From NCBI GenBank assembly GCA_031459535.1, contig JAVKIJ010000078.1, positions 1-15,157 of the forward strand: a stretch of DNA of 15,157 bases, written 5' to 3'. A program made the translations under genes and the position numbers. Shown one piece after another: positions 9,807-14,451 of this stretch (the first letter of the stretch is position 1; each line of letters opens with the position of its first letter). This DNA is from Candidatus Fervidifonticultor quintus. Its GTDB lineage: Bacteria; Sysuimicrobiota; Sysuimicrobiia; Sysuimicrobiales; Humicultoraceae. Below the pieces are notes generated by a model. It saw only the letters and a list, made by a program, of their open reading frames with translations. It ran no database searches and was not told the DNA's origin.

Positions 9807-9869
9807 GTGGAGCGAACTGAATCGCACACCGGATAGCAGGGGGAGGTGAGGCCGCACAGCCTGTGCCCT

Positions 9870-10045
9870 AGCGCCCGGACCCGGCTCCGTGATGCCGGGT
9901 TGACGAGGGAGGGGAGCTCGGAGTATCGGCGGGTGACCCTAGGCGCCATCCGCGCCTGCACAGCCTCAGCCCTGATCCCACGTGACTGAGGCCAAGGACG
10001 CCGACAAACCCCGGAGGCGACTCCGGGCCAAAAGGCGTTCCAGGA
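9870..10045 (+). ncRNA. glmS ribozyme (GlcN6P-activated self-cleaving riboswitch), variant
   Basis: A^GCGCC cleavage motif (A9870/G9871). P1 ACCCGGC 9879-9885/GCCGGGT 9894-9900. Core TGACGAGG 9901-9908 and TCGGCGGGTG 9926-9935. P2 AGGG 9910-9913/CCCT 9937-9940. P3 AGGCGC 9941-9946/GCGCCT 9952-9957. P4 GGACGCC 9996-10002/GGCGTTC 10034-10040 with an A-rich internal loop. P4.1 CCCGGAG-GCGA-CTCCGGG 10010-10027. Directly upstream of glmS. Confidence 0.93.
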
Positions 10046-10149
10046 CCCAGCGGTACCGACTCATTTTACCCGCGCCTGGGAACGACCAGGTCAGCGGTCT
10101 GTGCGCGCCGTTCCCGGTTCGGGCATCTCGATGCGTGCGGAGGTCTACC

Positions 10150-11997
<1,848 letters not shown>

Positions 11998-12012: not shown

Positions 12013-12177
12013 ATGAATATCGACGACGAATTGCTTGCGATCCTGGCCTGTCCGGTGGATCACGCGCCTGTGAGACGGGAGGGCGACCGTATTGTGTGCA
12101 CGCAGTGCGGCCGGCGCTACCCTATTCGTGACGAGATTCCGATCATGCTCATCGAGGAGGCCGAGCTGCCCGGATGA
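12013..12177 (+). CDS. Trm112-like (YcaR/UPF0434) small protein, 54 aa
   Basis: Manual translation gives MNIDDELLAILACPVDHAPVRREGDRIVCTQCGRRYPIRDEIPIMLIEEAELPG*, the classic LL.IL.CP...C..C...YPI...IP.ML..EA pattern. Below the ORF-track size cut-off. Alternative ATG at 12007. Confidence 0.9.
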   Translation: MNIDDELLAILACPVDHAPVRREGDRIVCTQCGRRYPIRDEIPIMLIEEAELPG

Positions 12178-12554
12178 GCGTGTTGGGGATCGGCGTTGAT
12201 GTGGTCGAAGTCGGCCGCATTGCCCGTGCCCTCGATCGCTGGGGCGAGGCCTTCGTGCGCCGCATCTACACTCCGGCGGAGATCGCCCGCACAGAAGCCG
12301 GCGTGGCGCGCACAGCCCGCCTGGCCGCGCGCTTTGCCGCTAAAGAGGCGGTCATGAAAGCGCTGGGCGTGGGGTGGCGCGCCCTGGCCTGGCGCGACAT
12401 CGAGATCACCAGCGATCCGACCGGCCGGCCCGTCGTGCGCCTGCACGGCGCGGCCAGGCGCCTGGCGGAAGAACGCGGCATCCGCTGTGTGCTGGTGGCG
12501 TTGTCGCACACGCACGCCCACGCGGTCGCCAGTGCCGTCGCGCTCGGACCTTAG
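12174..12554 (+). CDS. acpS: Holo-[acyl-carrier-protein] synthase
   Basis: Motifs GIGVDVVEVGRI, LAARFAAKEAVMKALG.G, W.DIEI....GRP and V.LSH. ATGA overlap with the Trm112-like gene. Confidence 0.96.
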   Translation: MSVLGIGVDVVEVGRIARALDRWGEAFVRRIYTPAEIARTEAGVARTARLAARFAAKEAVMKALGVGWRALAWRDIEITSDPTGRPVVRLHGAARRLAEERGIRCVLVALSHTHAHAVASAVALGP

Positions 12555-12576
12555 GGACCCACCGGGAGCAAGACGA

Positions 12577-12745
12577 AGAGAGGCGCTGGCTTTGTCCGAC
12601 TTTTCACCGTCTTCGGTCGCGCCGCCGGTTCTTACCGCCACGTGGCTGATCTCGGGAGTTACCTCCCAAGAAGACCTTGCAGCTCTCAGAGTCCACGTGC
12701 GCGACGTTTGACTCGGCTACTTCGCCGTTAGGCTCGCGCCTCTCT
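12577..12745 (-). ncRNA. Putative ~170-nt multi-stem structured non-coding RNA of unassigned family
   Basis: Perfect 10-bp closing stem (12577-12586/12736-12745) enclosing nested stems 12616-12622/12699-12705, 12640-12645/12693-12698 and 12646-12649/12686-12689. Hairpins with GUAA, GCAA, UAAC and AAGA loops on the minus strand. Dedicated promoter immediately upstream. No credible ORF. Confidence 0.72.
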
Positions 12746-12752
12746 GGCCCTC

Positions 12753-12782
12753 ACCCTAGCATCGCCGCCCTGGCAGCGTCAA
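12753..12782 (-). promoter_or_regulatory. Sigma70-type promoter with extended -10 driving the minus-strand structured RNA
   Basis: Minus strand reads TTGACG (12782-12777), 18-nt spacer, TGc-TAGGGT (-10 at 12758-12753). An A at 12745, 7 nt after the -10, is the first base of the closing stem. Confidence 0.65.
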
Positions 12783-12861
12783 TCCCCAACGCTCGTTCTG
12801 GGGGTGTGGATACTGTGGGCAAGCGACAGGAAACTGCAGATGCGGACAAGAAGCCTCGATC

Positions 12862-14451
12862 GTGCGCCTTCCCACGAACGAGGAGATGGCCGCCCTCGAC
12901 CGGCGCGCCGAGGAGGAGTTCGGGGTACCCACGCTGCTCCTCATGGAGGCCGCCGGGCGCGGGGTGTTCGAGGCTGCCCTCCGTCTGGCCTCCCGGGCCT
13001 CGCCCCGGGTCGTCGTGGTCTGTGGCAAGGGTAACAACGGCGGAGACGGGCTGGTGGCGGCCCGCCTGATGCTCGCGGCAGGCTGGCGGGTGTCCGTCGT
13101 ACTGGTGGCGCGGGATGCCGAAGTGAGTGGAGACGCCGCCGTCAACCTGCGAGCCGCGCGCCGGGCAGGGGTCGAGGTCATCAACCTGGACAGCACCGCG
13201 ATTCCGGCGCTGGGGGGGCTGCTGGCCTCGGCGGACCTGATCGTGGACGGTCTGTTCGGAACCGGCTTTCGGGGTCCCGCCGCGGGCCTCGCTGCCAAGA
13301 CCATCGAGCTCATCAACAGCGCCGGGCGGCCGGCGCTGGCGATCGACATACCCTCCGGCGTCCACGGCGACACCGGGGCTGTGGACGGTCCAGCGGTCCG
13401 GGCCACGGCCACGGTGACCATGGGCCTTCCTAAGATCGGCCTCCTGCTGCCACCGGGCGCCGAGTACGCTGGCCGCATCTGGGTGGCGGACGTCGGCCAT
13501 CCTCGCCGGCTGGTGGATGCGTCGGGCGTACGGACCTTTCTGCTCACCCGGCAGGCCGTGGACCAGGCGATCCTCAGGCGCCCCCTGGCCGCCCACAAGG
13601 GGAACTTCGGCCGCGTGCTCGTCATCGCCGGGTCGGTGGGGCACTCCGGTGCCGCGGTCCTGGCAGCGCTGGGTGCGATGCGGGCCGGGGCGGGTCTGGT
13701 GACACTCGGAGTCCCGGCGGCCATCTATCCGGTCGTCGGGCCGGCGGTGATCGAGGGCATGCCGGTACCGCTGCCTGATGACCAGGGCGCACTCGCCGCC
13801 GAGGCTGCGGCCCGGGTCCTGGAGATGGCCGCGTCGGCCGACGTGGTCGCCTGCGGCCCCGGCCTGTCCACCCTGCTCGGGCCGCGGGCCGTCGTCTTGG
13901 GCCTGCTCGCCGAGAGCTCGCGGCCGCTCGTGCTCGACGCGGACGCGCTGAACATCCTGGCGGGGCTACGCGGGCCCTGGCCTCAGAGGCAGTCGCCGGT
14001 GATCCTGACCCCGCACCCGGGGGAGATGGCCAGGCTCCTGGGGAAGACAGTCGAGGGCATTCAGCAGCAACGGATCCAGGTCGCCCGGGCGGCTGCCGAG
14101 CGCTTCGGCGCCGTCGTCCTGCTCAAAGGGGCGCGCAGCGTCGTGGCTGATCCGTCCGGCGACGTCGTGGTCGTGCCGACCGGGAATCCGGCTATGGCGA
14201 GCGGCGGCATGGGTGACGTGCTCACTGGCGCAGTGGCGGCCTTCGTGGGCCAGGGGCTTCAGCCGGCCGCTGCCGCCGGCGTGGCTGCTTACCTGCACGG
14301 CCTCGCGGGGGACCTGGTTGCGGCCGCCTCAGGGCCCGCAGGGATCCTCGCGGGCGAGGTGGCAGCCGCCCTGCCCAGGGCGCTCGCCGCGGTGCGCGCG
14401 TCCGCGGTGGAAGAACTCGTCACGCCGCTGGCTCCGGCCCCAGACGCCTGA
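12862..14451 (+). CDS. nnr: Bifunctional NAD(P)HX epimerase / ADP-dependent NAD(P)HX dehydratase (NnrE-NnrD, YjeF)
   Basis: Motifs LLMEAAG, CGKGNNGGDG, DGLFGTG, DIPSG, HKGNFG, GAGLV, LDADAL, LTPHPGEMARL, LLKG and GGMGDVLTG. Confidence 0.96.
   Translation: MRLPTNEEMAALDRRAEEEFGVPTLLLMEAAGRGVFEAALRLASRASPRVVVVCGKGNNGGDGLVAARLMLAAGWRVSVVLVARDAEVSGDAAVNLRAARRAGVEVINLDSTAIPALGGLLASADLIVDGLFGTGFRGPAAGLAAKTIELINSAGRPALAIDIPSGVHGDTGAVDGPAVRATATVTMGLPKIGLLLPPGAEYAGRIWVADVGHPRRLVDASGVRTFLLTRQAVDQAILRRPLAAHKGNFGRVLVIAGSVGHSGAAVLAALGAMRAGAGLVTLGVPAAIYPVVGPAVIEGMPVPLPDDQGALAAEAAARVLEMAASADVVACGPGLSTLLGPRAVVLGLLAESSRPLVLDADALNILAGLRGPWPQRQSPVILTPHPGEMARLLGKTVEGIQQQRIQVARAAAERFGAVVLLKGARSVVADPSGDVVVVPTGNPAMASGGMGDVLTGAVAAFVGQGLQPAAAAGVAAYLHGLAGDLVAAASGPAGILAGEVAAALPRALAAVRASAVEELVTPLAPAPDA

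Follow-up and report, generated by a model that had tools for sequence, protein, structure and literature searches.

Between the genes acpS and nnr of Candidatus Fervidifonticultor quintus (GenBank assembly GCA_031459535.1, contig JAVKIJ010000078.1), the minus strand carries a stretch, here named RNA-1, which an earlier note made from the sequence had proposed to encode a stand-alone, promoter-driven and possibly undescribed structured RNA. The locus raises the questions of whether this is a genuine RNA gene, to which family it belongs, how its RNA folds and what the RNA may do. We addressed these questions computationally, using the complete contig of 15,157 bases (the window), which is part of a high-GC metagenome-assembled genome (MAG; 68.7% GC, 88.9% complete, 5.2% contamination), referred to as G000. 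The minus-strand sequence given in the earlier note is present between acpS and nnr exactly as written. Our analyses lead us to conclude that RNA-1 very probably represents a genuine, undescribed family of structured non-coding RNAs (ncRNAs). Its RNA forms a single hairpin, long, irregular and without branches, which has 53 pairs, conserved internal loops and a GUAA cap. Throughout, position p of the RNA corresponds to window base 12746-p, and the coordinates of all features are collected in Table 1.

RNA-1 is a long unbranched hairpin supported by covariation

The 169 nt of RNA-1 (12745..12577) fold with -80.6 kcal/mol (z = -5.4), a stability that none of 200 dinucleotide shuffles reached; the plus strand of the same region has a fold z of -3.8. 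For the comparison with relatives, a covariance model (R1) was derived from 30 sequences, in which only the three helices considered safe were specified, namely P1, P3 and the apical hairpin (H1). One hundred sense-strand copies of RNA-1, originating from 98 of 173 loci, were then aligned to R1. This alignment (A3) omits locus L018, 21 duplicate loci, 52 loci of a pattern scan (see below) and the locus of 6S RNA. As none of the helices P1b, P2, P4b and P5 had been specified in R1, they were tested on an alignment that had not been fitted to them.

In A3, standard pairs occupy 91.2% of the cells of the 53-pair structure, versus 83.6% in shuffles, and 35 pairs have changed on both sides, versus 24.4 in shuffles, with none of 500 shuffles reaching 35; since the kinship of the sequences inflates such shuffle statistics, the independent helices and the slid controls weigh most. 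In the latter, the 3' partners were moved by 1-3 columns, and only 35-52% of the cells were then paired. Thus, the covariation among homologues by which the earlier note had proposed to judge the RNA is present.

From the ends inwards, the helices follow each other in the order P1, P1a, P1b, P2, P3, P4, P4b, P5 and apical hairpin. Compensatory changes are found along the whole rod (numbers are copies in A3). In P1, pair 5/165 is GC in 52 and AU in 41 copies, and pair 6/164 is GC in 60, AU in 28 and CG in 4. Pair 19/149 of P1b is CG in 77 copies, UA in 6, GC in 2 and AU in 1. Helix P2, in which positions 29-32 pair with 137-140 and 35-36 with 135-136, is 98.3% paired; its pair 29/140 is GU (74), GC (13) or AU (4), and its pair 31/138 is CG (94) or UA (3). 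Similar exchanges occur in P3 (44/127: GC 54, CG 32; 42/129: CG 62, UA 21) and in P4b (56/116: GC 47, UA 33; 57/115: CG 83, UG 7, UA 4). P4, which contains the bulged G120, is near-invariant in the main type of the RNA, and by eye the divergent copies have other complementary pairs at these positions. Beyond the last internal loop, P5 and a variable stem join positions 63-72 with 100-109, pair 64/108 being CG in 66 and UA in 25 copies; by eye, the distal arm is one long perfect hairpin in two clades. In the apical hairpin, pair 79/92 is CG in 65 and GC in 26 copies.

The most conserved bases of RNA-1 lie in short purine-rich internal loops and bulges and otherwise in helices. Out of 100 copies, the GAAGUA/GAAAA loop conserves A24 in 88, G26 in 82, U27 in 83, A28 in 81 and G141 in 90; the AAAC/CGAA loop conserves A37 in 92, A38 in 96, A39 in 95, A133 in 96 and A134 in 99; and the GAGA/GGUA loop conserves G59 in 99, A60 in 96, G111 in 97, U112 in 90 and A113 in 96. 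The bulged bases A33 and G120 are each present in 98 copies. We presume that the GAAGUA/GAAAA and GAGA/GGUA loops are of the loop-E or bulged-G kind, as they read like such modules (AGUA or GGUA opposite GA-rich strands). The largest internal loops measure 6x5 and 4x4, so that a large central bubble is lacking, and the structure leaves no long single-stranded seed.

Parts of the structure drawn in the earlier note are retained. The 10-bp closing stem is kept in relatives with compensatory changes, and both the helix GUCGCGC/GCGCGAC and the hairpin CUUGGGAG-GUAA-CUCCCGAG (positions 76-95) covary. The remaining helices had to be redrawn. The pairing ACGUGG/CCACGU does not hold, as its CCACGU partner is not conserved; ACGUGG pairs with the CCGGCG segment instead (P4). 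Rather than closing the hairpin GCC(UAAC)GGC, the CGGC sequence makes a long-range helix with GUCG (P1b), and the hairpins CGGU(AAGA)ACCG and GAGCU(GCAA)GGUCUU give way to the long-range helices P4b and P5. The CUGA/UCAG pairing, judged by eye only, includes a C-A mismatch in the most common type of the RNA and clashes with covarying long-range pairs. Where several GNRA loops had been seen, only the GUAA loop is conserved (71 of 100 copies). Because four drawn helices are contradicted or replaced by long-range pairs, RNA-1 is an unbranched rod and not the compact, ribozyme-like fold with multi-way junctions that had been proposed; no junction and no covariation-supported pseudoknot were found in it.

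The minus strand is the functional strand. The covariance model scores the sense strand with 200 bits versus 27.3 bits for the antisense strand, and conserved G-U pairs (29/140 GU in 74 copies, 51/121 UG in 73, 78/93 UG in 75) would be A-C mismatches on the opposite strand. On this point, the orientation chosen in the earlier note agrees with both lines of evidence. RNA-1 contains no conserved open reading frame (ORF): the longest ORFs have a median of 16 aa, and the lengths fall into all three residue classes modulo 3.

RNA-1 does not belong to a known RNA family

A search of the whole window with Rfam 15 (4227 models, gathering scores) produced a glmS ribozyme elsewhere in the window as its sole match, and none at RNA-1. 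When the region 12450-12900 was searched at E <= 10, only four chance-level, sub-threshold matches of 9-17 bits appeared (Ms_AS-1, 16.9 bits; sucC, 13.8; EBER1, 12.5; VEGF IRES, 9.1). The undescribed status that the earlier note had considered possible therefore stands.

The housekeeping RNAs of the genome are located on other contigs: a canonical 6S RNA (C24:32688-32868, 69.5 bits), a full-length RNase P RNA (C85:1305-1674, 258 bits), the signal recognition particle (SRP) RNA (C53:23483-23582, 69.6 bits) and transfer-messenger RNA (tmRNA; C37:1334-1683, 148 bits). In addition, the Y RNA-binding protein Ro (TROVE domain, PF05731) was found in none of the 94 genomes of the phylum, while the control search was positive in Deinococcus and Bacteroides. 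Together, these results demonstrate that RNA-1 is neither a housekeeping RNA nor a Y RNA, and they bear out the earlier by-eye judgement that it is not tmRNA, SRP RNA, RNase P RNA or 6S RNA. An identity of RNA-1 as SRP or 6S RNA was thus rejected in view of the canonical genes, and one as Y RNA because no Ro gene was found. The idea of a split or minimal RNase P, which arose from short look-alike stretches in RNA-1 and in a second RNA described below, was likewise discarded in view of the full-length RNase P RNA.

A second full-length tmRNA gene is present in the same assembly (C52:45-391, 135 bits). For a bin with an estimated contamination of 5%, two tmRNA genes suggest that a second strain or a contaminant contig is included.

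In the literature on the phylum CSP1-3/Sysuimicrobiota, titles and the beginnings of abstracts disclosed nothing on its RNAs; nor did we find a described RNA gene with a promoter combining DnaA boxes and a LexA site. A term search of PMC11604079, in which CSP1-3 is named Sysuimicrobiota and two of the genus names from our pattern scan occur, did not return ncRNA, riboswitch, LexA or DnaA.

RNA-1 is a family of diverged paralogues in one phylum

By BLAST, the RNA-1 region was detected in 35 of 41 related genomes. We then searched 94 genomes with R1; these make up one class, identical here with its order and its phylum (CSP1-3/Sysuimicrobiota according to the MAG names). RNA-1 was found in 74 of them. 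Excluding G000 itself, it is present in 31/33 genomes of family f1, 17/22 of f2, 23/23 of f4, and in the single genomes of f6 and f7 (1/1 each). R1 gave no match in f5 (0/12) or f3 (0/1). A fuller model (R2) likewise gave no match at E <= 1 in four f5 genomes with a completeness of 96-100%, and in f3 only a match of 24 bits (E = 0.08). Two unpublished genomes (G013 and G022) were counted and aligned; none of our claims depends on them alone.

To look beyond the phylum, an exact two-gap pattern derived from invariant columns was scanned over one genome per species for 185,579 species. It matched 52 stretches, every one of them in a MAG. The labels given by the depositors are mixed (Armatimonadota, Bacillota, "bacterium", Ca. 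Fervidifonticultor, Geohabitans and others), and each of the five genomes that we checked is identical with a member genome of this phylum. Since the pattern is strict, distant homologues in other phyla may exist. Collections of phages and plasmids contained no RNA-1 match. As far as searched, the RNA-1 of the window is therefore the founding example of a family limited to one uncultured phylum.

Genomes contain 1-8 diverged copies, with a single one in G000 and up to 8, including tandem pairs, in family f4. Copies within a genome are 41-99% identical, with medians of 50-82%, and a promoter of its own precedes every copy at a constant distance. These properties identify RNA-1 as a gene family with old and recent duplications and not as the product of a repeat burst; many near-identical copies per genome, as a miniature inverted-repeat transposable element (MITE) or other interspersed repeat would leave, were not observed. 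The earlier note had held that many near-identical genomic copies with target duplications would speak against an RNA gene. Multiple copies do exist, up to eight per genome in one family, but they are diverged paralogues with promoters of their own.

The genomic neighbourhood of RNA-1 varies

For the genes flanking RNA-1 we used only clusters confirmed by Pfam, because many crude ORF calls are spurious in this high-GC DNA (for instance, ORFs that start, at a constant 83 nt, within the region of the conserved boxes). In family f1, RNA-1 lies on the opposite strand between acpS (25 loci) and nnr (30 loci, some of them in f2). The convergent acpS gene ends approximately 2-46 nt past RNA-1 in the 25 f1 loci, and 22 nt past its 3' end in the window. 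This context is restricted to f1 and part of f2. In nine f4 loci a gene for a DUF255 thioredoxin-domain protein lies downstream, and other neighbours encode a solute-binding protein, a histidine kinase, a PGA_cap protein or a dehydrogenase. No class of same-strand downstream genes recurs across the RNA-1 loci. These variable neighbours and the convergent acpS gene 22 nt away speak against RNA-1 being a leader or riboswitch. In agreement with the earlier note, conservation, covariation and variable neighbours all point to a stand-alone minus-strand ncRNA gene, and we infer that it is transcribed as a discrete RNA.

A predicted promoter and a composite control region precede RNA-1

The sequence TTGACG-18-TGcTAGGGT, which the earlier note had read as a promoter, is present upstream of RNA-1, and its layout is conserved in relatives. 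The predicted transcription start, A12745, is located approximately 7 nt downstream of the -10 element and is, as had been proposed, the first base of the closing stem P1. A generic E. coli-type sigma-70 scan called no promoter in 12300-13000. Such a scan misses this one because TAGGGT matches the consensus at three of six positions, and the case for the promoter thus rests on its conservation in relatives, on the strength of which we conclude that RNA-1 has a conserved, predicted sigma-70-type promoter. At the other end, a U-rich tail follows P1; at least 6 T are found within the 12 nt past the model end in 46 of 100 copies. A generic terminator scan made no call in 12300-13000.

Upstream of the promoter lie an inverted repeat resembling a LexA box and two tandem 9-mers resembling DnaA boxes. 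These were analysed in the 97 RNA-1 copies that have at least 100 nt of upstream sequence. The motif GAAC-N4-KTTN occurs at -49 to -54 in 61 of the 97 copies, against a background of 1.5% per 110 nt. At least one DnaA-box-like 9-mer, scored as lying within one mismatch of the DnaA-box consensus, is present in 53 copies, all in one orientation (background 2.0%). Both elements occur together in 47 copies.

We compared these elements with the genome's own sites. Upstream of its lexA gene (identified by TIGR00498, 195 bits) and of three genes named by reading their translations, ruvC, a radical-SAM gene and one further gene, the sequence CGAAC-N4-GTTCG is found, in most cases with an AT-rich spacer. 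The dnaA-rnpA intergenic region contains a cluster of four DnaA boxes (C9:1447-1573), and a fifth box at about C9:1700 is identical to TTGCCCACA; putative sites of the type found at an origin of replication (oriC) are thus present upstream of the RNA-1 promoter. On the basis of these likenesses, and of caveats concerning spacer, flanks, family f4, the second LexA paralogue and missing boxes that are gathered in the Discussion, we consider that the 9-mers are likely DnaA boxes, and that the chances of the inverted repeat being a LexA-type operator are about even.

Several observations on the genes for these regulators were made in passing. The likely oriC region (C9:1-2400) comprises the N-terminus of dnaA at the contig end, a small HATPase_c/HTH gene and the DnaA-box cluster, beyond which rnpA, yidC, jag, rsmG and parA follow. 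Most genomes of the phylum encode two LexA paralogues that are approximately 47-53% identical, of which the G000 assembly holds only the first (C18:2035-2664). The boxes of the two differ, CG(A/T)AC-N4-GTTCG belonging to the first and GAACA-NN-TGTTTGC to the second; the latter motif was present in all 20 fetched promoters of the second paralogue. In several families (loci L219, L224, L225, L227, L228 and L237), an AT-rich motif of about 25 nt, TTAACATAA..ACATTATGCGAAGT, is conserved 60-110 nt upstream of the box of this second gene (lexA2). A co-occurrence of the second paralogue with RNA-1 was considered and rejected: the paralogue is present in 89 of 94 genomes, with f5, the family devoid of RNA-1, represented among them.

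At least 24 low-scoring RNA-1 paralogues have neither the DnaA-like nor the GAAC element. Instead, they share a motif consisting of AATAC, about 10 nt and CCGAT(A/G)G at about -50 (L125, L138, L139, L143, L145, L147, L148, L154-L158, L160, L162-L165, L167-L170 and others). It therefore seems that the RNA-1 family is controlled in at least two ways.

A second RNA is preceded by the same composite

The full composite of boxes, inverted repeat and GGATTGAC occurs at only two loci in G000: at RNA-1 and, on the minus strand, at about position 13410 of contig C80. Behind the latter we found a second candidate RNA (RNA-2) of about 86 nt. It has a covarying closing stem (2/87: UA 26, CG 3; 4/85: AU 25, GC 4), a near-invariant core and a U-rich tail, and it gave no Rfam match at E <= 1. 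RNA-2 is present in all 24 f1 genomes searched by BLAST and has orthologues in f2, f4, f5 and f7. The two RNAs are not detectably homologous, as neither covariance model matched RNA-2.

The pattern GAAC-N4-KTT-N4-ATTG-N-S, describing the inverted repeat followed by ATTGAC or ATTGCG, gave 178 matches in 80 of the 94 genomes, compared with 4 for the reversed pattern. In f1, the matches sit at the RNA-1 and RNA-2 loci. Eighteen further matches were fetched and classified: eight precede orthologues or paralogues of RNA-2 (in f1, f2 and f4), two precede short RNA-1 variants, two precede a small RNA with a closing stem like that of RNA-2, two are ordinary SOS-type promoters and four are unclear or intracoding. 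As matches precede both families, RNA-1 and RNA-2 share a dedicated control region. That the composite is a general promoter of stable RNAs was ruled out for G000, where it occurs at two loci only and 6S RNA is without it. This unusual common control region hints at a role in the control of replication or of the response to DNA damage.

Two further observations concern RNA-2. Loci L244 and L245 (G007:C19 and G023:C92) contain a candidate RNA of about 100 nt with a similar closing stem behind a GAACACCTGTTGGCGATTGAC promoter. At locus L166 (G017:C32:19992-20368), an RNA-2 gene and a weak RNA-1-like copy are convergent and approximately 64 nt apart.

Elsewhere in the window, the glmS ribozyme (RF00234, 48.9 bits; 9859-10050, plus strand) runs into the glmS-like gene downstream, whose longest ORF spans 9982-11997; the true start codon of this gene is therefore probably located further downstream.

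Table 1. Features of the RNA-1 locus and of RNA-2 (window positions unless a contig or locus is named; promoter, operator, box and tail elements are predicted)
Feature	Position	Strand	RNA-1 positions and partner	Remark
RNA-1	12577..12745	-	1-169	169 nt; covariance-model match over model positions 1-170, 200 bits
P1, 5' strand	12736..12745	-	1-10 with 160-169 (12577-12586)	93.3% paired; 7/10 pairs changed on both sides
P1a		-	13-14 with 156-157	part of the 53-pair structure
P1b, 5' strand CGGC	12724..12727	-	19-22 with GUCG 146-149 (12597-12600)	95.7% paired
Internal loop GAAGUA	12718..12723	-	23-28 opposite GAAAA 141-145 (12601-12605)	purine-rich
P2, 5' strand GCCG, bulge A33,N34, UC	12710..12717	-	29-36 with GACGGU 135-140 (12606-12611)	
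Internal loop AAAC	12706..12709	-	37-40 opposite CGAA 131-134 (12612-12615)	conserved
P3, 5' strand GUCGCGC	12699..12705	-	41-47 with 124-130 (12616-12622)	covaries
P4 and P4b	12688..12697	-	49-53 with 118-123; 56-58 with 114-116	3' strands 12623-12632
Internal loop GAGA	12684..12687	-	59-62 opposite GGUA 110-113 (12633-12636)	conserved
Distal arm	12637..12683	-	63-109	P5 (63-64 with 108-109), variable stem, H1
H1 (apical hairpin)	GUAA loop 12659-12662	-	76-83 with 88-95; GUAA loop 84-87	98.9% paired; 6/8 pairs changed on both sides
U-rich tail UCGUCUUGCUCCC	12564..12576	-		directly after P1
-10 TAGGGT preceded by TGc	12753..12761 (TAGGGT 12758..12753)	-		TAnnnT form conserved in alignments
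-35 TTGACG	12777..12782	-		18 nt upstream of -10
Inverted repeat GAACGAGCGTTG (GAAC-N4-GTTG)	12787..12798	-		LexA-box-like; 4 nt upstream of -35
Two tandem 9-mers TTGCCCACA, GTATCCACA	12805..12822	-		DnaA-box-like; upstream of inverted repeat
acpS	12174-12554	+		PF01648
nnr	12862-14451	+		PF03853 and PF01256
RNA-2, ~86 nt	G000 C80 ~13235-13425; L185:1690-1925	-		behind boxes, inverted repeat and GGATTGAC promoter

Discussion

How might such an RNA work? The reading that we favour is that RNA-1 is a trans-acting RNA of about 170 nt that binds or sequesters a protein, and whose level is controlled by DnaA together with a LexA-type repressor; taken as a joint claim, we give it an equal chance of being right or wrong. 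According to this proposal, RNA-1 would be transcribed on its own, ending at the U-rich tail after P1, and would act in trans as a ribonucleoprotein (RNP) or sequestering RNA, with its near-invariant internal loops serving as the protein-binding platform. The LexA-type repressor and DnaA would adjust its level to DNA damage or replication status, and the paralogues with the different upstream motif would be under other control.

Some of our results weigh against the proposal or the evidence behind it. At the level of structure, the kinship of the RNA-1 sequences inflates the shuffle statistics, and the distal stem (65-72 with 100-107) is weak, being 71-75% paired and varying between clades. 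The generic scans call neither a promoter nor a terminator at RNA-1. The sole RNA data set, metatranscriptome run X4, in which 48% of the sampled words are present, has contigs of the flanks only (12300-12614 and 12807-13100); DNA assemblies also break inside RNA-1, and this gap in coverage is thus neutral as to transcription. As to the regulators, DnaA-like boxes are absent from 44 of the 97 RNA-1 copies and from four of five fetched f2 promoters of RNA-2. The inverted repeat of RNA-1 differs from the SOS boxes of the genome by its GC-rich spacer and the lack of the flanking C...G, and throughout f4 it reads GAAC-N4-TTTC; the boxes of the second LexA paralogue, GAACA-NN-TGTTTGC, are of another form again. 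Finally, no gene was found to co-occur with RNA-1, the second LexA paralogue being present also in the RNA-less f5.

Comparison with known RNAs gives some idea of what the rod could be used for. Y RNAs and YrlA, which associate with Ro (Rsr), are protein-scaffold RNAs linked to the responses to UV and DNA damage. Like them, RNA-1 has its ends paired in a stem and often occurs several times per genome; unlike them, it is unbranched, has no tRNA-like module and no Rfam match, and no Ro gene was found in the 94 genomes of its phylum. The hairpin of the 4.5S SRP RNA (RF00169) serves as a protein-binding platform, and RNA-1 shares with it the single long hairpin, the conserved internal loops and the cap by a GNRA-type tetraloop. 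However, the loop sequences differ, one family of the phylum lacks RNA-1, and another has it in multiple copies. Orphan motifs of the raiA type, which are highly conserved RNAs of about 200 nt in Gram-positive-type lineages, resemble RNA-1 in being stand-alone and covarying, but its architecture, distribution and promoter are different, and none of the Rfam 15 models, among which such motifs would be represented, matched it at E <= 10. GlmY and GlmZ are a precedent for two small RNAs of one genome under the same unusual promoter and operator architecture; unlike that pair, RNA-1 and RNA-2 are not detectably homologous.

Other modes of action were weighed against the same evidence. A stand-alone gene with its own, stress-type promoter and a U-rich 3' tail is what one would expect of a small RNA that base-pairs with mRNAs in trans. 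Here, however, 53 pairs within 169 nt place nearly the whole molecule in covarying helices, the conserved unpaired runs are only 4-6 nt long and lie inside internal loops, and both size and structure are unusual for seed-type small RNAs, so that we see only a small chance for this explanation. We judge similarly the kind of RNA that the earlier note had favoured, a ligand-binding or catalytic RNA such as an orphan trans-acting aptamer or a ribozyme. The near-invariant loop bases and the bulges at A33 and G120 would suit such a function, as would the conserved GNRA loop, which might dock on the rod. The rod is unbranched, though, and lacks a junction or covariation-supported pseudoknot, none of the Rfam ribozymes or riboswitches matched, and no class of neighbouring genes hints at a ligand; there is little prospect that this explanation is correct.

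A 6S-like RNA, that is, a second and divergent 6S paralogue binding RNA polymerase, was a further candidate. 6S RNA (RF00013; about 170-185 nt) is a stand-alone rod whose 5' and 3' ends meet in a long closing stem and of which paralogues are possible. RNA-1 has a comparable size of about 170 nt, a closing stem of about 35 pairs with internal loops and a distal stem of about 20 pairs, and several paralogues per genome, as is the case for 6S-1 and 6S-2 of Bacillus. Against this stand the lack of an RF00013 match at E <= 10 and the canonical 6S gene on C24, whose promoter lacks the composite. In RNA-1, moreover, no internal loop exceeds 6x5, where 6S RNA has a large central bubble, and the loop sequences are far more conserved than in 6S RNA, where conservation is of structure only. 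We therefore regard this candidate as improbable.

Very improbable is a function of RNA-1 as a cis element of acpS and nnr, either as an antisense regulator or as a terminator. In f1 it always lies between these genes on the opposite strand, and because of this arrangement acpS read-through into nnr would be antisense to RNA-1; but the same RNA and promoter occur in unrelated contexts, with 2-8 copies in other families, and both the G-U pairs and the model scores identify the minus strand as the one that functions. Least probable of all is that RNA-1 is a MITE-like repeat or mobile element, or a DnaA-binding locus acting at the DNA level with the structure as a by-product: its terminal 10-bp inverted repeat, the up to 8 copies and tandem pairs in f4 and the DnaA-like boxes that travel with it would fit, but G000 has one copy, paralogues are 41-99% identical, compensatory changes preserve pairing and not sequence, phages and plasmids gave no matches, and each copy keeps its promoter at a fixed distance.

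A wider version of the protein-binding proposal takes RNA-2 into account. RNA-1 and RNA-2 could be the two RNA components of a system that is specific to the phylum and coupled to DnaA and a LexA-type repressor. Their RNPs would act back on the SOS response or on the initiation of replication, for instance by titrating or remodelling a protein involved in replication or repair, and paralogues under the different promoter motif would give this system several inputs. This version is speculative, and we attach a low, though not negligible, probability to it. If true, it would be an RNA-based control of replication or DNA damage without a described counterpart.

RNA-1 is new as an RNA family, while stand-alone structured regulatory RNAs in general are a familiar kind. 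Among structured RNAs, ones that are both large and highly conserved yet lack an assigned function are rare. Such RNAs have historically led to new biochemistry, as was the case for 6S, OLE, raiA and Y RNAs. RNA-1 is amenable to experiments, as it combines a resolved covarying fold, a family of paralogues and a control region that is shared with RNA-2 and bears DnaA-like and LexA-like sites. These features translate into concrete hypotheses, namely that RNA-1 would be induced by a replication block or DNA damage and that named regulators would bind at its gene. The family also illustrates that annotation based on Rfam misses abundant RNA genes in candidate phyla, and it may open a way to study how the cell cycle and stress are controlled in a phylum that is widespread but of which no pure cultures exist.

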